Source of the DNA: Escherichia coli O127:H6 str. E2348/69
GTDB lineage: Bacteria > Pseudomonadota > Gammaproteobacteria > Enterobacterales > Enterobacteriaceae
Length of the DNA: 64,000 nucleotides
Assembly: GCF_000026545.1 (NCBI RefSeq)
Contig: NC_011601.1
Reading direction: 5' to 3' (one strand)
Both the position numbers and the translations under genes were made by a program. This document shows positions 31,230 to 46,696 of this stretch, in pieces (the stretch's first letter is position 1; the number at the start of each line of letters is the position of its first letter). The notes under the pieces are model-generated. The model was not told the DNA's origin and ran no database searches. It saw nothing but the letters and a program-made list of their open reading frames with translations.

Positions 31230-31241
31230 TGATTATTGAAC

Positions 31242-31269
31242 AAAAGCTGGCAGTTGCCAGCTTTTGTTG
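31242..31269 (+). terminator. Rho-independent terminator downstream of metL
   Basis: AAAAGCTGGCA-GT-TGCCAGCTTTTGTTG. Confidence 0.8.
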
Positions 31270-31329
31270 TCACCCCTAAACCTCTTCCTGGGGAAGTGGT
31301 GATTGATTGTCATTTTGCCTTTGGTCAGT

Positions 31330-31353
31330 GCCCCCGGTAATAAGGGGGCTTTT
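31330..31353 (+). terminator. Second hairpin plus T-run at the left edge of the metL-metF accessory region
   Basis: GCCCCC-GGTAATAA-GGGGGC followed by TTTTG. Confidence 0.4.
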
Positions 31354-31446
31354 GTGTTGAGCGATGAAGTAACAGAGTGAATGGTGAAGTTATTAATGAC
31401 AATTACAAAATGACATTAAGTAACAATATCTAAAATGTCACCTAAT

Positions 31447-32307
31447 TTAAAATTGATAACCAATAGTAGTATAGGTTCCCCATCCTGTATTTTTTAATTC
31501 AAATGGACCATCTCCGAAGTTAACCTTCTCTCCCGCATTCCATTGTCCACCGTTGTGAAAATAACGTAGTGTAAATGCAAATTTCCAGTGTTCATATAGA
31601 AGGGAAAGGATATGGCTTGAAGCAATAGCATTACTGGTTCGTTTATTATTGTGTGACTTGTCCGCAAGATCGGAGCCAAAATCAAAGTTAGTAAAACTAT
31701 TGTATACCAATCGTCCTCCGAATAAATTTGTAAGAGGGATGCTATATTTTATTTTGAATCGATATCCGTCCCATTCATTTTCATTAGCGGCACCATAGTT
31801 TTGCCACTGATACTTGGCGTATATATTGGCAGAAAGCTTAATTGGTAGACCCGTGTCGATATCTGTACCAAGCCCCATATACCATGTACTTTGCCGGGAT
31901 GACTGGTTGTCACCCATATCATAGACATAGTTGTTTGCAATGAACCATTCTTTAAATGGGCCGAACGCAAGATTTAATCCGGTCAATTTGTCAATGGAAA
32001 ACCGAGGTTCTATTTCCGTAAATAGTGGTGAGCCCTCATCCCAGATCCCAACATCATAGTGACTGCCGACGCCAAAGAATTTCGGTAGATCAACATAACC
32101 ATAAAAATCAAACCAGTCTTTTCTTCCTGCTACAGTATATTCAGGGTAGAGGTCGTTAGTCAGTCTTGGGCCAAAGCGAGAGTCTGTGCGACCAATGACA
32201 TTCAAGCTTTGATGTAACCAGCTTTCATCAATTTTAATTTCCTGAGCGTTTCCAATGCAAGGTATTAATAGAATGGATAAAGCTATCCAGTGCTTTTTTA
32301 TATACAT
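31447..32307 (-). CDS. Tsx/OmpK-family outer-membrane nucleoside-specific channel (accessory paralog)
   Basis: 286-aa ORF; N-terminal signal peptide ([21 protein letters not shown]|QE), aromatic-rich beta-barrel-like sequence, C-terminal ...GYQF ending in Phe as in Tsx; last gene of a minus-strand three-gene cluster. Confidence 0.6.
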
Positions 32308-32383
32308 AAATATATCTCTTATATATTGTTGATTTAGAGAGAAATAATGTCATCCAGTGAATGAATGGTATTATAAGTTTTTG

Positions 32384-34009
32384 TTATTTGCTTACTTCTA
32401 CCCGCATTTCATTTACCTGTGCAGGAGTAATCTTGTGGCCTTTCTTAAAATAATCGATTACGACATTGGACATGTTATTTCCGGCGCGGACCTGGACATT
32501 TTTCCCTTCTTTGAATGCCAGAAAACCATCGCCCCCAAGTGCAAGGAAAGTCGTAGTCGCAACATGGTAAATATTCGTATCAACGATCTCTTCACCATTA
32601 ATTTTAAAAGATACAATGCGCTGACCTACTGGTTTCTGCAGGGTATAGCGCATTTCTGCGCCTTTTGACATTTGCAGGATGCCATTGGTAAGCGATGCCC
32701 CGTGCTCCAGTAGGTTACGCAGATCCTTACCGCTGAGATCCATTTCAGTAAGTTCATTCTTGAAGGGGAATGTACTGGTAATGTCACCAAAGGTAATCGT
32801 GCCTGCATTTATATCAGCACGTAAACTGCCGGAGTTTATCAACGCAATTTGTGCAGTCGGTGCAGCGACAAGCATTGCATCGGTAAACAGGTTGCCAAGT
32901 TGCGATGACTCACCGTAGGCACGAGTTAATGCAATCGATGATTCACCGACTGGTTGGCGTACAATATCCGCCAGTTTTTTATTCCAGCCATTGATAACTT
33001 TTTGTGTGGTTGGATCGGGTATCCATTCATCGGCATAAACCGTTTTCAGCTCAAAGCTCTTCACTTTATGAGTACGAGCTGTAGGGTTGACATCAAGGAT
33101 TAATTTACCAATATCGATACCGCCACTGTCAGTCGAAAGGATTAAGGTGTTGCCGACTTTGATTGGTTCTGGCGTTCCGACGTGGGCATGCCCGGTAATC
33201 AGAATATCCAATCCTTTCACCTTGCTTGCGGTTTGAATATCTTTATCCAGCGCACGTCTAACATCTGTATTGCCAATGCTGGACTGACGCGCCGGTACGC
33301 CTTCATGAACCAGCGCCACGGTGAGGTCAACCTTATCACGTAACTCGTCGATATAATGCTGCAAATACTTCACTTCATCACGTGCTTCAATCCCCTGATT
33401 CTTGAGGGTCGCGGAAGATTTATCAAATCGGTTATTATTGTCATTATCGAGTCCCTGGAGAGAGAGCTCCGAGACCGTGTCATTAAATGCAAATACGCCG
33501 TGTAGCCCAACAATACCAATCTTGATGCCATCTTTTTCCAGGATGGTGTAGGGCTTGTTCCAGAAGGGTTTCTCACTCTCTTTATGATAAACATTGCCTA
33601 ATAAAACAGGGAAATTCGCTTTGCTTAATTGTCGGAGGGCATTATCCCAGCCATGGTCAAACTCATGATTACCGATTGATACTGCGTCAAAAGGCATGGT
33701 ATTCATAATATCAATTATTGCTTCGCCCTTTGTCAGGCTACTGATATATGGCCCGGTGAAATAGTCTCCAGCATCAAAATAAAAGGTGGCTTTATTTTTG
33801 GCTTTCTCTTGTTTTACTAACGTGGATATATTGGCAAAGCCACCAATGTCGCGTTTTCCGTCTGCGACATACGGTACTTTATAGGAATCCACATGAGCGT
33901 GAAGATCATTGGTATAAATAATCGTGACATCCTGCGCCATGACTGAGGTCGAAAAAATAGTCAGCAATGTTGCGGCAAGTAAAGTACGCTGCGCTGTTTT
34001 CATTCGCAT
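32384..34009 (-). CDS. Secreted UshA-like bifunctional metallophosphatase/5'-nucleotidase, paralog 1
   Basis: 541-aa ORF; signal peptide ...SVMA|QDV; calcineurin-like motifs [26 protein letters not shown]; C-terminal 5'-nucleotidase domain (GNLFTDAM, FPFKNEL). Confidence 0.8.
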   Translation of the reverse strand: MRMKTAQRTLLAATLLTIFSTSVMAQDVTIIYTNDLHAHVDSYKVPYVADGKRDIGGFANISTLVKQEKAKNKATFYFDAGDYFTGPYISSLTKGEAIIDIMNTMPFDAVSIGNHEFDHGWDNALRQLSKANFPVLLGNVYHKESEKPFWNKPYTILEKDGIKIGIVGLHGVFAFNDTVSELSLQGLDNDNNNRFDKSSATLKNQGIEARDEVKYLQHYIDELRDKVDLTVALVHEGVPARQSSIGNTDVRRALDKDIQTASKVKGLDILITGHAHVGTPEPIKVGNTLILSTDSGGIDIGKLILDVNPTARTHKVKSFELKTVYADEWIPDPTTQKVINGWNKKLADIVRQPVGESSIALTRAYGESSQLGNLFTDAMLVAAPTAQIALINSGSLRADINAGTITFGDITSTFPFKNELTEMDLSGKDLRNLLEHGASLTNGILQMSKGAEMRYTLQKPVGQRIVSFKINGEEIVDTNIYHVATTTFLALGGDGFLAFKEGKNVQVRAGNNMSNVVIDYFKKGHKITPAQVNEMRVEVSK

Positions 34010-34043
34010 TCCTTGTTAAATAAATTGACTGATAAATGAGATT

Positions 34044-35597
34044 TTATTTGGCGACGTCCATGACTCGTTTAGTTAAGTCTGGGGTGACAGGTTTATGATT
34101 TTTGAAATAATCGATGATAGATTCCGCCGAGGTTGTTCCCGGTATCGTCTTCACATTTTTTCCATTCAAAAATGCTTCAAAACCGTCACCACCACTGGCA
34201 CAAAAGGAGTGCGTGGCAATACGATATGTTTGATTATCTTCCACGGGTTTGCCGTTAATGGTGAAAGAGATTAACCGTTGGTTGAGTGGTTTTTTGCTGT
34301 CATAGACAACCGCAACGCTTTTTGAAACCTGTAACACACCGTTAGTTAGATTGGTTGCATGCGTCATCAATGATTTGAGATCGCGGCCCGTCAAATCCAT
34401 CTCGATGAGGTCATTATTAAAGGGGAATGTGCTAATAACATCTCCCAGTGTGATATCGCCTTTAGGAAAATCAGCTCGCATCCCACCGCTATTTTGAAAT
34501 CCGGCAACGGCATCAGGTGTTTTTTCCATCATTGCATCAAGAATAAGGTTGCCGGTAGAAGAGGAACTACCATACTCACGTGTTAAAACTATGGGAGAAT
34601 GGCCGACAACTTCCTGTGTTATTTTGTTAAGCTGTGCACTCCATTTATCAATAGTATTTTGAACGATGGTGTCAGGTTTAAATTGATCTGCAAAGATGGT
34701 GATTAACTCACCATTATAACTATCAATTTTCTTCGTTTTCGGATTGTAATCAAGCACAAGTTTTCCGATGTTGGTGCCGTATGCATCGGTAGATACAATT
34801 AATGTGTTATTAACTTTTATTGGTTGCGGTGTTCCGACATGTGCGTGACCGGTAATTAAGACATCAACACCATTCACTTTTTTAGCTGTCTCAATATCTG
34901 CCTGTAGTAGCCGCTCCACATCTTTACTACCAAAGCTTGATTGACGCGCCGGGACACCTTCGTGAATTAGCAAAACGGTAATGTCGACTTTACCTTTTAA
35001 TTCTGCAAGTGCTTTATTTAAAAATTTAATTTCGTCTCTGGCTTCTACGCCTTCACGTGCTTTTGCCGCGACAGTATCATAGAAAGCGAATGCGCCATGC
35101 AATCCAATCACACCAATCTTTAAACCATCTTTTTCGATAATGGTCCACGGATGATCCCAAACTGGTTTATTCGTATCGGTGTAGTAGATATTTCCCAGCA
35201 GAATGGGGAATTTTGCTTTTGATAACTGAGACACCATATTGGGCACACCGTGATCGAACTCGTGATTACCAACAGACACCGCATCAAAGGGCATAGTGTT
35301 CATGATATCAATAATAGCTTCACCTTTGGTCAGTGTGCTGATATACGGCCCGGTAAAATAGTCGCCTGCATCAAAGAAAAACACATCTTTGCTTTTTTTC
35401 TTCGCTTCATTAACGATGCCTGCAATATTAGCCATACCACCTATAAGTCTGTTCTTATCAACAGCGATGATTTTTGCCGGATTGACATGTGCGTGAATGT
35501 CATTCGTATAATAAATAGTAACGTCCTGAGCTAGAACACTGTGAGAAAATATCACGCCGAATATGACTGATAATGTTGTAAATACAGTTTTCATCAT
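34044..35597 (-). CDS. Secreted UshA-like bifunctional metallophosphatase/5'-nucleotidase, paralog 2
   Basis: 517-aa ORF; signal peptide ...SVLA|QDV; motifs [33 protein letters not shown]; more divergent from paralogs 1 and 3. Confidence 0.8.
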   Translation of the reverse strand: MMKTVFTTLSVIFGVIFSHSVLAQDVTIYYTNDIHAHVNPAKIIAVDKNRLIGGMANIAGIVNEAKKKSKDVFFFDAGDYFTGPYISTLTKGEAIIDIMNTMPFDAVSVGNHEFDHGVPNMVSQLSKAKFPILLGNIYYTDTNKPVWDHPWTIIEKDGLKIGVIGLHGAFAFYDTVAAKAREGVEARDEIKFLNKALAELKGKVDITVLLIHEGVPARQSSFGSKDVERLLQADIETAKKVNGVDVLITGHAHVGTPQPIKVNNTLIVSTDAYGTNIGKLVLDYNPKTKKIDSYNGELITIFADQFKPDTIVQNTIDKWSAQLNKITQEVVGHSPIVLTREYGSSSSTGNLILDAMMEKTPDAVAGFQNSGGMRADFPKGDITLGDVISTFPFNNDLIEMDLTGRDLKSLMTHATNLTNGVLQVSKSVAVVYDSKKPLNQRLISFTINGKPVEDNQTYRIATHSFCASGGDGFEAFLNGKNVKTIPGTTSAESIIDYFKNHKPVTPDLTKRVMDVAK

Positions 35598-35642
35598 CCC
35601 TCCTAGATAGGGGGTGTTACATTTGTTGAATTATTTAAATAA

Positions 35643-35659
35643 AAGACACATCGTGTCTT
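35643..35659. promoter_or_regulatory. Perfect 7-3-7 palindrome AAGACAC-ATC-GTGTCTT between the Cys-rich gene and nucleotidase paralog 2 (candidate operator or weak terminator)
   Basis: Exact inverted repeat read directly from the sequence, ~50 bp upstream of the paralog-2 start codon and ~170 bp downstream of the Cys-rich gene stop. Confidence 0.45.
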
Positions 35660-35691
35660 ATTTTATGTAAGCATAGTTCAGAAAAGTATTG

Positions 35692-35707
35692 TGTGATCTT
35701 AGTAACA
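35692..35707. promoter_or_regulatory. CRP-like site upstream of the nucleotidase-2 / nucleotidase-1 / tsx-like cluster
   Basis: TGTGA-TCTTAG-TAACA: one perfect half-site and one half-site with a single mismatch to TGTGA-N6-TCACA. Confidence 0.45.
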
Positions 35708-35826
35708 AATAATGTTATTAATTAAACATTGACCATGATTATATTTCACGGTCATACATTTATATATTTAATTAAATGAAAGGTAGTGATCTCTCTTAAT
35801 TTATGGTCGTTTGTCGAGTGTATTGA

Positions 35827-36951
35827 CTAACAAGATGGAGTGAGCGATTCATTGTATTTTAACGCCAGTGAGGTCAGCATTTGCGTTACGCGACCTGCGG
35901 ATAATAACGCGCTTTGGGTAAAGTCGTGTTGGTCTGTCAGCCATGTGATAAAACAACGACTGGTTGCCAGAGAAACATTTGCGCCCCTTTCTAAGCAGGC
36001 TCCCGTGAGTAGGCAGACCATCTTGCAGTTATTCCCCTGCTCCCAGCGCTGCCACTGATTTTGCCACCAACCATGGTATGTCGTTCCCTTAAAATGCCAG
36101 GGCGTATCAGCGTTACTGTCACTGATTTCTTCTTCTACGAACCAAAGTTCACCTTGTTGTTGGCGGAACTGATCTGCCCAGGCTGTAATAATTGCGCCTC
36201 TTAGAAAACATTCGTGTGAAATAATATGCGTTTTGACATCTGGATAGCGGATTTTCAGTATTCTGAAATGCCCGTGTGCCTTGATAACCGGGCGTAGTAT
36301 GGCTCCCTTACCGTTGCGCTTGAGTACAGCACTGCCATACTGAATTTCATCGAACTGGCTCCGGCGCAAGAATTGCGCTTCACGCATATCTACCTTCTGC
36401 ACGATATCGCGATGGTGCATAGTTGGTTCTGTGTTGCCCTTGTAACTGTACCGCAGACTGTCTCCTGTCTGATGTTGCGTATAATTCGTGGAGAGATGAA
36501 GAATGTTGCCACGAGTGGCGTCAAGACTGACTAAAACATACAGTTTTTGTACTGCGCTGGCCCCTTGAAAGGGTATGAACAGTTGAACGGTTTCAATGGC
36601 CTGGGGATGCGTAATTTCTTTCTGATATTTTTTAGGCGTCCAGACTTTTTTGCAGTTACGGCATTGAATGCGTTGCGAACCCTGTGGATTGTGACCATAA
36701 CAAATCATGTCTGTGCCATAACATACCGGGCAGAAATGGCCTTTCTCAATTGCATAAGTAGACAAGTGAACTGACAACCAGTCACGAAATTGTTGCTCGT
36801 CAAACAACGGCGGGTAACTGCCACATGCCCGACAGTGCAGTGCCGGATAACCCAGTTTATAGTCTGGCCAACTGTAATCTTCCGATGAGGCCAATCCCAA
36901 ATTTCGGCAACCGAACGTTTTACAGGCATTAATCGTAAACAGAGTCGACAT
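35827..36951 (-). CDS. Hypothetical cysteine-rich protein with two putative N-terminal zinc ribbons and a Trp-rich C-terminal domain
   Basis: 374-aa ORF; Cys clusters C-x4-C...C-x2-C and C-x2-C-x17-C-x2-C (HFCPVCYG...IQCRNCKK); no signal peptide; not recognised as any K-12 protein; AT-rich flanking intergenic regions. Confidence 0.6.
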   Translation of the reverse strand: MSTLFTINACKTFGCRNLGLASSEDYSWPDYKLGYPALHCRACGSYPPLFDEQQFRDWLSVHLSTYAIEKGHFCPVCYGTDMICYGHNPQGSQRIQCRNCKKVWTPKKYQKEITHPQAIETVQLFIPFQGASAVQKLYVLVSLDATRGNILHLSTNYTQHQTGDSLRYSYKGNTEPTMHHRDIVQKVDMREAQFLRRSQFDEIQYGSAVLKRNGKGAILRPVIKAHGHFRILKIRYPDVKTHIISHECFLRGAIITAWADQFRQQQGELWFVEEEISDSNADTPWHFKGTTYHGWWQNQWQRWEQGNNCKMVCLLTGACLERGANVSLATSRCFITWLTDQHDFTQSALLSAGRVTQMLTSLALKYNESLTPSC

Positions 36952-37008
36952 ATATCACCAACGATTTCACAAGGTCGTTGATTTTGTCCGGCAACTATCC
37001 CCTGCGGA

Positions 37009-37024
37009 TGTGATTACTCTCACA
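37009..37024. promoter_or_regulatory. Consensus CRP binding site in the divergent promoter between the Cys-rich gene and nucleotidase paralog 3
   Basis: TGTGA-TTACTC-TCACA, a perfect match to both CRP half-sites with 6-bp spacer, ~55-70 bp from both divergent start codons. Confidence 0.6.
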
Positions 37025-37077
37025 TAAATAAGTCTTTCAGAACGTAATGTAGCAATCCTTTATCTCACTGAAAGGGA

Positions 37078-38637
37078 TTGTTTATGAAAATTAAAATACT
37101 TGCTGCGGGTATCGCATTAACACTGCCGTTCTGGGCTTGCGCTAAAGATGTCACTATTATTTATACCAACGACCTCCATGCGCATGTAGAACCTTATAAA
37201 GTGCCGTGGATCGCTGACGGTAAACGGGATATTGGCGGCTGGGCAAATATCACTACGCTGGTTAAGCAAGAAAAAGCAAAAAATAAAGCGACATGGTTTT
37301 TTGATGCGGGCGACTATTTTACCGGGCCATATATCAGCAGCCTGACCAAAGGTAAGGCTATTATCGATATTATGAATACTATGCCGTTTGATGCCGTCAC
37401 AATAGGCAACCATGAATTTGACCACGGCTGGGACAACACATTATTACAGTTGAGCCAGGCAAAATTCCCTATTGTGCAGGGCAATATTTTTTATCAGAAC
37501 AGCAGTAAATCATTCTGGGATAAGCCCTATACCATCATCGAAAAAGACGGCGTGAAAATTGGCGTTATAGGTTTGCACGGAGTATTTGCCTTCAATGATA
37601 CGGTATCTGCTGCCACGCGCGTGGGTATTGAAGCGCGCGATGAAATTAAATGGCTACAACGTTATATCGATGAACTCAAAGGCAAGGTTGATTTGACCGT
37701 CGCCCTGATCCACGAAGGTGTTCCAGCCCGCCAGTCCAGTATGGGAGGCACAGATGTGCGTCGCGCGTTGGATAAAGATATTCAGACGGCAAGTCAGGTG
37801 AAAGGGCTGGATATTTTGATCACCGGACATGCACATGTGGGTACGCCGGAACCGATTAAAGTCGGCAATACGCTCATCCTCTCCACTGACAGCGGCGGGA
37901 TTGATGTGGGCAAACTGGTTCTCGACTACAAAGAGAAGCCGCATAATTTTACGGTGAAAAACTTCGAGCTTAAAACCATTTACGCTGACGAGTGGAAGCC
38001 CGATCTGCAAACGAAACAGGTGATCGACGGCTGGAATAAAAAGCTTGATGAAGTGGTGCAACAAACGGTGGCGCAATCGCCGGTTGAATTAAAACGTGCC
38101 TATGGTGAATCGGCTTCCCTCGGGAACCTGGCGGCTGACGCCTTACTGGCAGCAGCGGGTAAAAATACCCAACTGGCTTTAACAAACTCTGGTGGTATCC
38201 GCAATGAGATCCCCGCAGGGGCGATCACGATGGGCGGCGTCATCAGTACCTTCCCGTTCCCCAACGAACTGGTGACGATGGAACTCACGGGTAAACAATT
38301 ACGCAGTCTGATGGAACACGGCGCAAGTTTAAGCAATGGCGTTTTACAGGTATCGAAAGGCCTGGAAATGAAGTACGACAGCAGCAAGCCGGTTGGTCAG
38401 CGGGTAATCACACTGACTCTGAATGGCAAACCCATTGAAGATGCGACGGTTTATCACATTGCTACTCAGAGTTTCCTTGCTGATGGTGGAGATGGTTTTA
38501 CCGCCTTTACCGAAGGGAAAGCGCGTAACACAACGGGCGGTTATTACGTTTATCACGCGGTGGTTGATTACTTCAAAGCGGGCAACACCATTACGGATGA
38601 ACAGCTCAACGGTATGCGCGTGAAGGATATCAAATAA
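37078..38637 (+). CDS. Secreted UshA-like bifunctional metallophosphatase/5'-nucleotidase, paralog 3
   Basis: 519-aa ORF; signal peptide ...FWACA|KDV; motifs [33 protein letters not shown]; closest to paralog 1. Confidence 0.8.
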
Positions 38638-38947
38638 AAGTGCGCACTGAATTGACTCAACCGTTTGTTACCCGTTGATTGCGCAGATCCTGTATTCGGC
38701 CTACGCGAGGGCGCAGGCCGAATCAGATGCCTTAGCATCACCATCCGGTGGCAGGACGTTGTTTTTAGAATTAGCCCAGGTGTCGCTGTGTTGTCAGAAT
38801 ATGAGTCAAAACGTGCGAGGTGGATTGCGCTATAGAGAAATCTTTTATCGCCTCTAATTAAGATGAGTTTTTTTCATCTTCCCTGATTTTTCCTCACCAT
38901 CATTGGTTATTTTTCGGTTGACGCCCTTCGGCTTTTCCTTCATCTTT

Positions 38948-44248: not shown

Positions 44249-44779
44249 GTGCAGTTTATGAAACATTCATTTGAAGTAAAACTTGCCGCTGTAAATCATT
44301 ACCTGGCTGGTCATGCAGGCATCATTTCTACGGCAAAACTCTTTCAACTTTCTCACACCAGCCTCTCACACTGGATTAATCTTTTTCTTCTTCACGGTCC
44401 TCGGGCACTGGATTGCAGACACAAGCGTAGCTATTCTCCTGAAGATAAACTTTGCGTGGTTCTTTATGCTCTCGGGCATTCTGAGTCTCTACCCCGGGTA
44501 GCTGCCCGGTTTAACATTCCCAGCCACAACACGGTTAAAAACTGGATAAAAGGCTACCGCAAATCTGGTAATGAGGCCTTTATCAGGTGCAGGAAGGAGA
44601 AAAGCATGACCCGTTCTGATGATACCCATGAAAACGAGGCAAACATGACGCCGGAAGAGATGAAGAATGAGCTGCGTTATCTTCGCGCAGAAAATGCATA
44701 TCTGAAAGCCATGCAGGAGCATCTTCTGGAAAAAAAGCGCCAGGAGCTGGAGAAAAAACGAAAGTCATCCAGAGCCTGA
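44249..44779 (+). CDS. IS3-family transposase OrfA (HTH DNA-binding subunit)
   Basis: 176-aa ORF with N-terminal HTH and C-terminal leucine-zipper-like region (NELRYLRAENAYLKAMQEHL); architecture resembles IS150 InsJ. Confidence 0.8.
   Translation: MQFMKHSFEVKLAAVNHYLAGHAGIISTAKLFQLSHTSLSHWINLFLLHGPRALDCRHKRSYSPEDKLCVVLYALGHSESLPRVAARFNIPSHNTVKNWIKGYRKSGNEAFIRCRKEKSMTRSDDTHENEANMTPEEMKNELRYLRAENAYLKAMQEHLLEKKRQELEKKRKSSRA
44729..44735 (+). promoter_or_regulatory. Programmed -1 ribosomal frameshift heptamer A AAA AAG of the IS3-family element
   Basis: Heptamer lies in the orfA frame ~45 nt before the orfA stop; the -1 frame is open from here into the OrfB-like sequence. Confidence 0.65.
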
Positions 44780-45321
44780 GGTACGGACACTGCCAGTCTG
44801 ACCTGTTAAAGGCCGCAGGGCTGGCCAGAAGCACGCTGTACTACCAGCTGTCACTGCAGAAGGCTAAGGACAAGTATGCTGATGTGAAACAGCTCATAGC
44901 CTCCATCTTCCATGAACACCGGGGATGTTATGGGTACCGGCGGATCCATTGTGAGCTTCAGAAAAGAGGTCTTAAGTTCAGTGGCAAAACGGTGCGAAAA
45001 CTGATGCAACAGCTCGGCCTGAAGTCTCCTGTGCGCCTGAAGAAATACCGGTCTTACCGGGGAAATATGGGACTCGCTGCAGAAAATATCCTTCAGCGAC
45101 AGTTCAAAGCGGAAGCTCCCTGTGAGAAATGGGTGACAGATATCACCGAATTCAGGGCTGGCGGACAAAAACTGTACCTGTCCCCGATACTTGATTTGTT
45201 TAACGGGGAAATCGTGGCGTGGGAAACGGCCTGCAGGCCTACAGAGGAGCTGGTGAAGCGGATGTTAAATAAGGGGCTGGAAAGCCTTGCTGAAGGGGAG
45301 AAACCGCTGCTCCACAGTGAT
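44729..45321 (+). pseudogene. IS3-family transposase OrfB (DDE integrase core), N-terminal segment interrupted by an IS110-family insertion
   Basis: -1 frame is open from the A AAA AAG slippery site; translation ...YGYRRIHCELQKRG...KWVTDITEF...PLLHSD resembles IS150 InsK and then abruptly diverges at residue D. Confidence 0.75.
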
Positions 45322-46696
45322 AGTAATAATGCCGGTATCAGTTTTTATCATCACTCTGTTTGCTGTTTAACCAGACTGGTGTGATTACTGATGCAGTGAA
45401 GACCTTCCCGCATCCTGACTCACACAGCGATCGACCCTTTGTGTCCTGCCCTGGACCTGTCGGTTGCCGGAAGCGCCTTCATGCGAGGCGTCTCCTCACC
45501 GATGCGCGTGACTCAAGAAGGGCCTGACGGTTTGTCTCGTTACTGTCCTGTCCGGGTTATCTGTCTGGAGATTCAACTCTGTTTCCTCACAGGAGCTCTG
45601 TTATGGCAGGTAAAGTTACGGAAACCGCTGTTGTGGGTGGCGTGGATACACATAAAAATCTGCACGTTGCCGCTGTCGTAGATCAGAACAATAAAGTTCT
45701 GGGGACCCAGTTTTTCTCCACAACACGGCAAGGTTACCGGCAGATGCTGGCATGGATGACTTCGTTTGGGGCATTAAAGCGAATTGGTGTTGAGTGTACA
45801 GGCACCTATGGATCAGGTCTGCTTCGCTATTTACAGAATGCCGGGTTAGACGTTCTTGAGGTGACTGCGCCAGATCGGATGGAGCGACGCAAACGGGGTA
45901 AAAGTGACACGATTGATGCTGAATGTGCCGCTCACGCCGCATTCTCCGGAATAAGAACCGTCACACCCAAAACGCGCAATGGCATGATTGAGTCTCTGCG
46001 GGTATTAAAAACTTGCCGAAAAACAGCAATATCAGCCCGCAGAGTCGCTCTCCAGATTATCCATTCCAATATTATCTCTGCCCCGGATGAATTACGTGAA
46101 CAGCTCAGAAATATGACGCGTATGCAGCTCATCAGGACTCTGGGATCCTGGCGGCCTGATGCCAGTGAATACCGCAATGTTACCAACGTTTATCGTATTT
46201 CATTAAAGTCCCTTGCCCGACGCTATCTCGAGTTACATGACGAAATCGCTGATTTGGATGTCATGATTGCGGCAATTGTCGATGAGCTGGCGCCTGAACT
46301 GATTAAACGTAATGCTATTGGATACGAAAGCGCTTCGCAGTTGCTGATCACGGCAGGAGACAATCCCCAACGATTAAGATCAGAATCAGGTTTTGCGGCA
46401 CTGTGTGGTGTCAGCCCTGTTCCCGTATCTTCAGGAAAAACGAATCGTTATCGACTTAACCGGGGTGGAGATCGTGCTGCAAATAGTGCACTTCACATCA
46501 TTGCCATCGGACGTTTGCGAACTGACGATAAAACGAAGGAATATGTCGCCAGACGAGTAGCGGAAGGGCATACAAAAATGGAAGCAATACGCTGCCTGAA
46601 GCGCTATATCTCACGCGAAGTTTATACATTACTGCGTAATCAAAACAGGCAGATCAACAGCATCCCGATAACGGCTTGACTCTTAGAAGGGCGTCC
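45322..46696 (+). mobile_element. IS110-family insertion sequence (about 1.37 kb) nested inside the IS3-family orfB
   Basis: Boundaries inferred from the exact interruption of the IS3 OrfB reading frame (PLLHSD | QGWHYR); contains a ~280-bp non-coding left end and a single transposase gene; no terminal inverted repeats evident, as is typical for IS110 family. Confidence 0.7.
45603..46679 (+). CDS. IS110-family transposase (DEDD/RuvC-like N-terminal domain plus C-terminal transposase domain)
   Basis: 358-aa ORF MAGKVTETAVVGGVDTHKNLHVAAVVDQNNKVLG...GVECTGTYGSGL...; the VGIDxxK / ECTG motif pattern typical of IS110/IS621-type transposases. Confidence 0.85.
   Translation: MAGKVTETAVVGGVDTHKNLHVAAVVDQNNKVLGTQFFSTTRQGYRQMLAWMTSFGALKRIGVECTGTYGSGLLRYLQNAGLDVLEVTAPDRMERRKRGKSDTIDAECAAHAAFSGIRTVTPKTRNGMIESLRVLKTCRKTAISARRVALQIIHSNIISAPDELREQLRNMTRMQLIRTLGSWRPDASEYRNVTNVYRISLKSLARRYLELHDEIADLDVMIAAIVDELAPELIKRNAIGYESASQLLITAGDNPQRLRSESGFAALCGVSPVPVSSGKTNRYRLNRGGDRAANSALHIIAIGRLRTDDKTKEYVARRVAEGHTKMEAIRCLKRYISREVYTLLRNQNRQINSIPITA

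Follow-up and report, generated by a model that had tools for sequence, protein, structure and literature searches.

In the 64,000-nucleotide stretch of the Escherichia coli O127:H6 str. E2348/69 chromosome (NC_011601.1) analysed here, hereafter the window, a gene on the minus strand (35827..36951, ATG start, stop codon 35827-35829) encodes a 374-aa protein listed in RefSeq as WP_000105533.1, 'hypothetical protein'. We call it ZnRH. By sequence and structural model, ZnRH is derived from a transposase: it carries an InsA-type zinc ribbon, recognized by homology, joined to a domain of the DDE-transposase fold class. As to its role, we give about an even chance to the reading that ZnRH is a domesticated, immobile descendant of an IS1-type transposase which serves as a local regulator of the divergently transcribed 5'-nucleotidase gene (nucleotidase paralog 3), and probably also of the unit formed by nucleotidase paralogs 2 and 1 and a tsx-like gene. 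The open reading frame (ORF) had been proposed from the letters of the DNA in an earlier description, here the original prediction, and it is real: it coincides with the RefSeq coding sequence, has 248 homologues and shows ratios of nonsynonymous to synonymous substitution rates (dN/dS) between 0.09 and 0.32. In the literature we found no study of the ZnRH protein or its family, and no described case in which a DDE transposase of bacteria had been domesticated to regulate metabolism.

What speaks most strongly to the function of ZnRH is its gene context. We sampled it in 12 clades, down to ~22% identity, and in 11 of these the gene adjoins or is near genes for a 5'-nucleotidase, NupC, nucleoside phosphorylase, DeoB, Tsx or adenosine deaminase. 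Members of the clade to which ZnRH itself belongs, present in E. coli, E. whittamii, Citrobacter, Klebsiella, Enterobacter, Pluralibacter and Pseudocitrobacter, are always divergent from a Metallophos/5_nucleotid_C gene, the spacer being 132-138 bp wherever both starts are readable. Divergence from a nucleotidase gene recurs in clade P0123 (37-40% identity; Citrobacter, Atlantibacter), in clade P0144 (24-28% identity; Vibrio, Enterovibrio) and in clade P0132. Elsewhere the gene lies directly downstream of a NadN-like nucleotidase (P0168 and P0163), is divergent from NupC and a nucleoside phosphorylase (PNP; P0141), comes after a nucleoside phosphorylase (P0226), or is placed between PNP-transaldolase-phosphopentomutase (DeoB)-NupC on one side and Tsx-adenosine deaminase (Add) on the other (P0156). 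The search for co-occurrence with UshA-like genes that the original prediction had recommended was thus strongly positive, and it includes different chromosomal sites (Escherichia, Citrobacter, Klebsiella, Enterobacter, Pluralibacter, Atlantibacter, Vibrio, Enterovibrio); in Klebsiella sp., for example, the cassette occupies another place in the chromosome, together with tsx and a second nucleotidase. The ZnRH family is genomically locked to nucleotide and nucleoside scavenging genes across Enterobacteriaceae and Vibrionaceae. This conserved linkage fits the position of a dedicated regulator, as had been suggested for the gene, the regulatory role itself being what we infer from it.

Comparison of Pluralibacter with Klebsiella sp. 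(L003, L017) bears on what exactly is linked. The ZnRH proteins are 86% identical and the intergenic region is the same, yet the nucleotidase paralogs joined to them are only 54% identical. This points to ZnRH and its upstream region behaving as one cassette, with the enzyme gene modularly exchanged.

The N-terminal part of ZnRH is rich in conserved cysteines. In a family alignment of 57 sequences, reaching down to ~20% identity, a first cluster (C10-x4-C15 ... C40-x2-C43) is kept wherever the segment exists, that is in 53-54 sequences, which bears out the C-x4-C...C-x2-C motif of the original prediction. The second cluster consists of four conserved cysteines as predicted; their spacing, however, is C74-x2-C77-x19-C97-x2-C100, with x19 and not x17 in the middle. 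C97 and C100 are present in 57/57 sequences, C77 in 55 and C74 in 46, while C84, between them, is not conserved. The first cluster belongs to a family-specific zinc module (residues 1-50; 36802..36951, minus strand), in which N8, K11, Y26, L33 and G34 are also nearly invariant; it is modelled by AlphaFold2 (AF2) with a per-residue confidence (pLDDT) above 90 and is covered by no Pfam or NCBIfam match. A helix follows in the AF2 model (residues 52-70), and then a zinc ribbon of the IS1 InsA type (residues 71-106; 36634..36741, minus strand), holding the second cluster together with G86 and R94. No signal peptide is present.

The relation to IS1 becomes apparent only through sensitive comparison. 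Scans of ZnRH with Pfam, NCBIfam, PHROGs and PADLOC gave sub-threshold zinc-ribbon matches only (23.2 bits against a cutoff of 28 for NCBIfam IS1_IS1595_Zn, NF050000; 22.5 bits against a cutoff of 100 for the NCBIfam IS1 transposase, NF033558; independent E value 0.007 for Pfam Zn_ribbon_InsA, PF03811) and no match to a defence system. At plain Pfam and NCBIfam thresholds, then, the statement that ZnRH matches nothing known holds, but profile-profile and fold comparison do classify it, and the verdict 'unclassifiable' has to be given up. Aligned by hhalign with InsA of the E. coli K-12 IS1, the family profile reaches a probability of 96.8% and an E value of 2.3e-10 across both the zinc ribbon and the helix-turn-helix. 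ZnRH itself takes part in that alignment by the ribbon (residues 71-112) alone, its helix-turn-helix columns being gaps, and AF2 places no helix between residues 100 and 118. Distant family members keep a ~60-aa helix-turn-helix-like insert and match positions 1-130 of the 199 of the NCBIfam IS1 profile, below cutoff. From these alignments we conclude that the InsA helix-turn-helix has been deleted in the ZnRH clade. C2H2 zinc-finger matches also came up in a profile search of PDB sequences; they are spurious, driven by the pattern of Cys and His, and were rejected.

Loss of the helix-turn-helix, together with the one-to-one pairing with Metallophos/5_nucleotid_C genes in the closest clades and the missing signal peptide, would also suit a quite different role. 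ZnRH might be a cytoplasmic partner of the periplasmic nucleotidase, an inhibitor or holdase keeping the precursor inactive before export, analogous to the intracellular inhibitor of E. coli UshA to which no gene has been assigned. According to a review (PMC8475336), specific cytoplasmic protein(s) inhibit UshA, an inhibition that may guard cytoplasmic nucleotides before the enzyme is secreted, and the reference list of that review contains a paper titled 'cytoplasmic localisation of 5'-nucleotidase is conditionally lethal'. We nevertheless consider this role unlikely. Several clades adjoin NupC, PNP or DeoB with no nucleotidase nearby, and most of the family has kept an InsA-type DNA-binding module of zinc ribbon plus helix-turn-helix. 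The cassette, moreover, combines with nucleotidase paralogs of different type, just 54% identical, at 86% identity of ZnRH. Finally, the island that carries ZnRH is absent from the K-12 genome examined, though the UshA inhibitor was described for E. coli generally. Were this role true, an activity known since 1967, whose gene the review (PMC8475336) does not name, would have in ZnRH its first candidate gene class.

The larger part of ZnRH (residues 113-374; 35830..36615, minus strand) is an RNase H-like domain of the DDE transposase/integrase type that lacks an intact DDE triad. It matches no Pfam or NCBIfam model. Comparison of the AF2 model (pLDDT 94.5) with known folds identifies the C-terminal domain as an RNase H-like fold of the DDE-transposase type, with a Trp-rich insertion of four beta strands (268-314) and a C-terminal helical bundle. 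The stretch WQNQWQRWEQ, singled out in the original prediction, is found in this insertion at residues 296-305, and its W296 and W300 are shared by 56/57 sequences. When the family was aligned by hhalign with IS1 InsB, no similarity was detected (probability 0.2%); therefore the C-terminal domain is tied to DDE transposases by fold class only, and not to IS1 specifically. We located the DDE positions by the secondary-structure topology of the AF2 model and not by superposition, beta1 corresponding to about 118-128, beta4 to 217-219 and beta5 to 241-245. On beta1 the 57 sequences share no conserved acidic residue, T121 and S123 being dominant, and none follows beta4, where R/K220-P221 is found instead (P221 in 55/57). 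Position 247 (E247) is acidic in 100% of sequences, at approximately the spacing expected for the third DDE residue. Two of the three DDE carboxylates thus appear to be absent from the family and the catalytic residues lost.

A non-canonical active site could in principle take over, for instance D144/D201/E247 or H228/H246/E247, and make ZnRH an active nuclease or recombinase working on nucleic acids or on the DNA of its locus. In favour are the confident RNase H-like fold and the fairly conserved acidic positions 144 (D or E in 77% of sequences) and 201 (acidic in 88%, in the loop between alpha1 and beta4), besides an invariant H228 and an H246 kept in 53/57. We think this quite unlikely, as the sites where DDE enzymes hold their first two carboxylates are devoid of acidic residues, position 144, in the turn between beta2 and beta3, is a common structural one, and nothing speaks of mobility or rearrangement; a cytoplasmic nuclease would moreover have no obvious tie to periplasmic scavenging. 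The 'new enzyme' that the original prediction offered as an alternative is likewise not supported.

The divergent intergenic region common to ZnRH and paralog 3 (132 bp, 36952..37083) is conserved in four blocks, with 76% mean column identity in an alignment of 10 sequences, although the flanking genes have reached saturation at synonymous sites. It contains a site of the CRP type, TGTGATTACTCTCACA (37009..37024); no other perfect TGTGA-N6-TCACA occurs in the 64 kb. Of its two halves, TCACA never varies among the orthologous regions, and TGTGA bears one substitution in 3/10 sequences. Candidate -10 hexamers, positioned from the sequence, lie ~41 bp from the site on both sides (TAATGT for the nucleotidase, CAAAAT for ZnRH), and because of this distance one CRP dimer could serve two back-to-back class-II-like promoters. 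Two inverted repeats accompany the site. The first, CAACGA-N10-TCGTTG (GCAAAATCAACGAcc-N-AAATCGTTGGT; 36959..36980), ends ~10 nt before the ZnRH start codon, and its right arm AAATCGTTGGT is invariant in 10/10 sequences; it is a candidate auto-operator or 5' untranslated region (5' UTR) hairpin. The second, CTTTCAG-N27-CTGAAAG (CTTTCAG...TTACGTTCTGAAAG; 37034..37074), brackets the predicted -10 and the 5' UTR of paralog 3. With its 7-nt arms and 27-nt spacer it is unique in the window (0 expected by chance); the arms are conserved, and the right one overlaps the Shine-Dalgarno sequence of paralog 3.

A similar arrangement is seen upstream of paralog 2. There we found a second CRP-like site, TGTGATCTTAGTAACA, with one mismatch (35692..35707), and beside it a box, GTTCAGAAAAG (35677-35687), resembling the box beside the paralog-3 site. 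Since site and neighbouring box mirror the paralog-3 arrangement, they suggest that the promoters of paralogs 2 and 3 are paralogous and CRP-dependent.

From these elements a mode of action can be proposed. The zinc modules of ZnRH would be its DNA-binding part and the conserved repeats their sites; the repeats overlap the predicted starts of both divergent promoters, and each would cover the start-site region of its promoter. Such a region is the usual place for the binding of a repressor. The single site for CRP complexed with cyclic AMP would activate both divergent promoters. The catalytically dead RNase H-like domain would provide oligomerisation and sense a nucleoside or nucleotide effector, presumably in a pocket lined by the invariant residues R197, D201, Y205, H228, H246, E247, R251, W295, W296 and W300. 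Expression of the scavenging genes would thereby be coupled both to carbon starvation and to the availability of substrate. For a zinc ribbon acting alone as DNA binder there is precedent in NrdR and in Dof; structurally, the N-terminal module is matched best by these two (Dof in complex with DNA), the match to NrdR being weak and limited to a generic zinc ribbon.

Several observations weigh against a local regulator of this kind. Because the InsA-type helix-turn-helix was lost in the ZnRH clade and kept in its relatives, the DNA-binding capacity of ZnRH is less certain than that of the wider family. The conserved intergenic blocks could be promoter, ribosome-binding or RNA elements instead; for the leader of paralog 3 RNAalifold found no covariation or compensatory pairs among 12 orthologues. 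A search for a common operator motif among the intergenic regions of the nucleoside cluster of clade P0156 returned nothing convincing. The topological mapping of the DDE positions, on which the loss of catalysis depends, must be counted here too. As for gene context, clade P0148 shows no nucleoside-related neighbour, the sole such clade among the 12, and in clade P0160 (Salmonella arizonae, Citrobacter, Klebsiella) the gene is part of an arylsulfatase/maturase operon, the divergent unit being a nucleotidase and a porin-like gene.

RNA elements in the leaders would open a further possibility, namely that ZnRH is a post-transcriptional regulator whose zinc ribbons and RNase H-like domain bind the hairpin-forming 5' leaders of its own and the nucleotidase mRNA and control translation. 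Both kinds of domain are often RNA-binding. The predicted 5' UTRs contain or adjoin the conserved repeats, one of which overlaps the nucleotidase Shine-Dalgarno sequence, and in the paralog 3 leader (37030-37098) a hairpin AAUCCUUU/AAAGGGAUU, situated within the longer conserved inverted repeat, can sequester that sequence (minimum free energy -13.6 kcal/mol, z -2.5). We judge this very unlikely. No predicted pair shows a compensatory change, the Rfam scan of both intergenic regions gave no match, the relatives of ZnRH carry a helix-turn-helix of the DNA type, and the transcription start sites are predicted ones, so that the repeats may not be transcribed at all.

Next, we considered distribution and selection, which separate a host gene from a mobile one. 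ZnRH is found in 1841 of 5426 complete E. coli genomes, at exactly one place in each and at full length in 1840 of them; nucleotidase paralog 3 is found in 1843. A word-indexed search recovered the 248 homologues (370-400 aa) in Escherichia, Citrobacter, Klebsiella, Enterobacter, Pluralibacter, Pseudocitrobacter and Kluyvera, most of them bearing just the name 'cytoplasmic protein'. An exhaustive search of 1.84 billion cluster representatives extended the family to 124 clusters at 50% identity, many of 400-520 aa and at 21-43% identity. When 100,044 species were scanned, one genome each, no genome held more than two members, and these were divergent paralogs; the scan used a narrower family alignment and reached mostly Enterobacteriaceae and Vibrionaceae. 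One E. coli strain, SCPM-O-B-8794, has two family members (77% and 68% identity to ZnRH) at different loci. At its second locus (L019, 921-7131) three nucleotidase genes are linked to the family member; the nearest, an ORF of 484 aa, seems to have a disrupted N-terminus, and the CTTTCAG/CTGAAAG repeat has degenerated there.

Pairwise dN/dS of ZnRH is 0.09-0.17, with 0.32 for the closest pair, and that of the neighbouring nucleotidase 0.02-0.05; at equal dS (0.23 versus 0.24) ZnRH has accumulated ~3.5 times more replacements than the nucleotidase. Judged by these rates, ZnRH is a constrained gene under purifying selection and not a decaying one. Between E2348/69 and the commoner E. coli allele (L004, 6315-9131), dS amounts to 1.12 for ZnRH and 0.17 for the adjacent paralog 3, and because of this difference we place a recombination breakpoint in or near the 132-bp spacer between the two genes. 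The '76% identity' of E. coli ZnRH alleles therefore reflects allelic replacement in part. Positive selection was considered as the cause of the fast divergence of ZnRH and rejected, as the divergence is partly such replacement and omega is well below 1. The E2348/69-type allele accompanies the extra paralog-2/paralog-1/tsx segment.

No terminal inverted repeats surround ZnRH or its island; the sole long repeats there stem from the oppositely oriented nucleotidase paralogs. What the original prediction would have taken as its refutation, a known transposase with terminal inverted repeats or an ORF that is not conserved, is thus not what we see in this repeat-free, single-copy gene under purifying selection. 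That ZnRH is a decaying or still mobile IS1/IS1595-like insertion sequence gene without host function is extremely improbable and largely refuted, for against its weak matches to IS1, IS1595 and IS256 zinc-domain models and the label 'IS1 family transposase' that some relatives carry in databases stand an intact single copy, dN/dS well below 1, orthologues syntenic across genera, missing terminal repeats, scores that all fall under curated cutoffs and no similarity to InsB. The suggestion of a degenerate zinc-ribbon transposase was therefore right as to descent, shown by the InsA-type ribbon and the DDE fold, but ZnRH is no longer a mobile element.

ZnRH is accordingly not filed as an IS1, IS1595 or IS256 transposase. 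It departs from IS1 in lacking the helix-turn-helix, an intact DDE triad, terminal repeats, multiple copies and resemblance to InsB, and it scores below the curated cutoffs. It shares with InsA/InsAB' the homologous four-Cys zinc ribbon, the DDE-type RNase H-like fold and, in the wider family, the InsA helix-turn-helix, but it differs by its extra N-terminal zinc module, by the deletion of the helix-turn-helix, by the apparent absence of two of the three DDE carboxylates, by having no frameshift architecture and by its single copy in fixed context; it is also ~140 aa longer than InsAB' (the InsA and InsB ORFs have 91 and 167 aa). InsA itself is a repressor which binds the IS1 ends. Of the IS1595-type DDE domain, no Pfam or NCBIfam DDE_Tnp_IS1595-type match appeared at E <= 10, and only the shared zinc-domain model NF050000 responded, below its cutoff. 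Nor does ZnRH have the Mutator-type DDE and the IS256_N_4Cys domain above cutoff that belong to IS256/Mutator elements of the IS1249 subgroup. Its likeness to ISCth4 (IS256/Mutator; PDB 6XG8) and to the IS1249 subgroup with its N-terminal four-Cys domain is confined to 11% identity and scores of 16-30 bits, compared with 300 for IS1249, and ZnRH lacks their DDE triad and any sign of mobility.

Among regulators, NrdR, the zinc-ribbon and ATP-cone repressor of ribonucleotide reductase genes, resembles the mode of action proposed for ZnRH but is unrelated; ZnRH has no ATP-cone, and its presumed sensor is the transposase-type RNase H-like domain. The CytR/CRP and DeoR nucleoside regulon of E. coli (tsx, deo, udp, cdd, nupC, nupG) comprises the same functional class of targets and has in common with the ZnRH locus a CRP-type site in the promoter region. 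CytR, of the LacI family, and DeoR, a helix-turn-helix protein, are unrelated to ZnRH in sequence and fold, and no CytR operator was identified at the ZnRH locus. Plant FHY3/FAR1 are transcription factors derived from Mutator-like elements, and the bacterial TldR proteins are repressors derived from TnpB. Like them, ZnRH would be a DNA-binding protein of transposon origin that has become fixed at a host locus and whose catalytic centre is disabled; it differs in its parent, an IS1-type DDE transposase, in its gammaproteobacterial hosts, in its metabolic targets and in that its regulatory action is inferred.

The order of genes given in the original prediction agrees with RefSeq: ZnRH is divergent from paralog 3 (37084..38637, plus strand) and stands upstream of paralog 2 (34044-35594), paralog 1 (32384-34003) and the tsx-like gene (31447-32307), all on the minus strand. 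All three nucleotidases (32384-38637) carry the annotation 'bifunctional metallophosphatase/5'-nucleotidase'. Because a terminator-like hairpin (35754-35730, minus strand) is located ~75 nt past the ZnRH stop codon, ZnRH is suggested to be a monocistronic unit. The genes form an accessory island in the order metL, tsx-like (-), paralog 1 (-), paralog 2 (-), ZnRH (-), paralog 3 (+), metF. By comparison with K-12 (L048, 368-566), the island (~31230-38868 of the window) stands in for ~200 bp of the metL-metF spacer; that K-12 spacer holds a palindrome like those of the repetitive extragenic palindromic (REP) elements. Neither terminal repeats nor a target duplication were found at the ends of the island (31230-38868). 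In a two-gene variant of it, metL and the 376-aa gene overlap by 37 nt at their 3' ends (L004, 9095-9131). A 2026 genome paper lists the island as 'GR 31, metL..metF' and describes Tsx and three UshA-like ORFs, leaving the 374-aa gene unmentioned; the nucleotidases are given there as only ~27-28% identical to B. subtilis YfkN and as having no identity to K-12 UshA (PMC12928451).

Some further observations were made on the way. P0160-type paralogs (~25% identity; L034, 168-9090, of Salmonella enterica subsp. arizonae, and L033, L035, L036 and L038) adjoin nhaA-nhaR and come after an arylsulfatase and an anaerobic sulfatase maturase; at the arizonae-type locus a 580-aa ORF with no NCBIfam match comes next, and the divergent unit is made up of a nucleotidase gene and a possible porin gene, which matches the hypothetical-protein model PRK11528. 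In two unrelated contexts of the family, a 56-aa ORF without Pfam match is placed directly upstream of a PNP_UDP_1 gene (L042, 5624-5794; L044, 4692-4862) and may be a conserved small membrane protein or leader peptide. Between yijF and gldA (~44258-45603 of the window) there is a copy of IS1397, an IS3-family element with a programmed frameshift, which is unrelated to ZnRH.

More tentatively, the reading can be widened from the locus to the family, a possibility that we hold to be somewhat short of probable. The whole gammaproteobacterial family (~124 clusters at 50% identity) would then consist of IS1-type transposase descendants exapted as transcription factors that respond to a nucleoside or nucleotide ligand and govern nucleotide and nucleoside scavenging, the former DDE region having become a sensing pocket, and DNA recognition in the Escherichia/Citrobacter/Klebsiella clade being now the task of the zinc modules and no longer of the InsA helix-turn-helix. 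Among their targets would be periplasmic 5'-nucleotidases, Tsx, NupC, nucleoside phosphorylases, DeoB and adenosine deaminase.

Regulators that arose by domestication of a transposase are well known from eukaryotes. In bacteria, to our knowledge, they are barely documented beyond the TnpB-derived repressors. If the regulatory role of ZnRH is true, it would provide a clean bacterial case for a classical DDE (IS1-type) transposase, with the parent domains traceable, the catalytic residues lost and a consistent link to one pathway. The strains that possess ZnRH carry with it an accessory nucleotide-scavenging island (GR31 of PMC12928451), and the family sits beside scavenging genes in many gut and marine bacteria. 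The regulatory role, if true, would also assign a function to a gene present in about one third of complete E. coli genomes, among them enteropathogenic (EPEC), extraintestinal pathogenic (ExPEC), avian pathogenic (APEC) and adherent-invasive (AIEC) strains as well as Nissle 1917.

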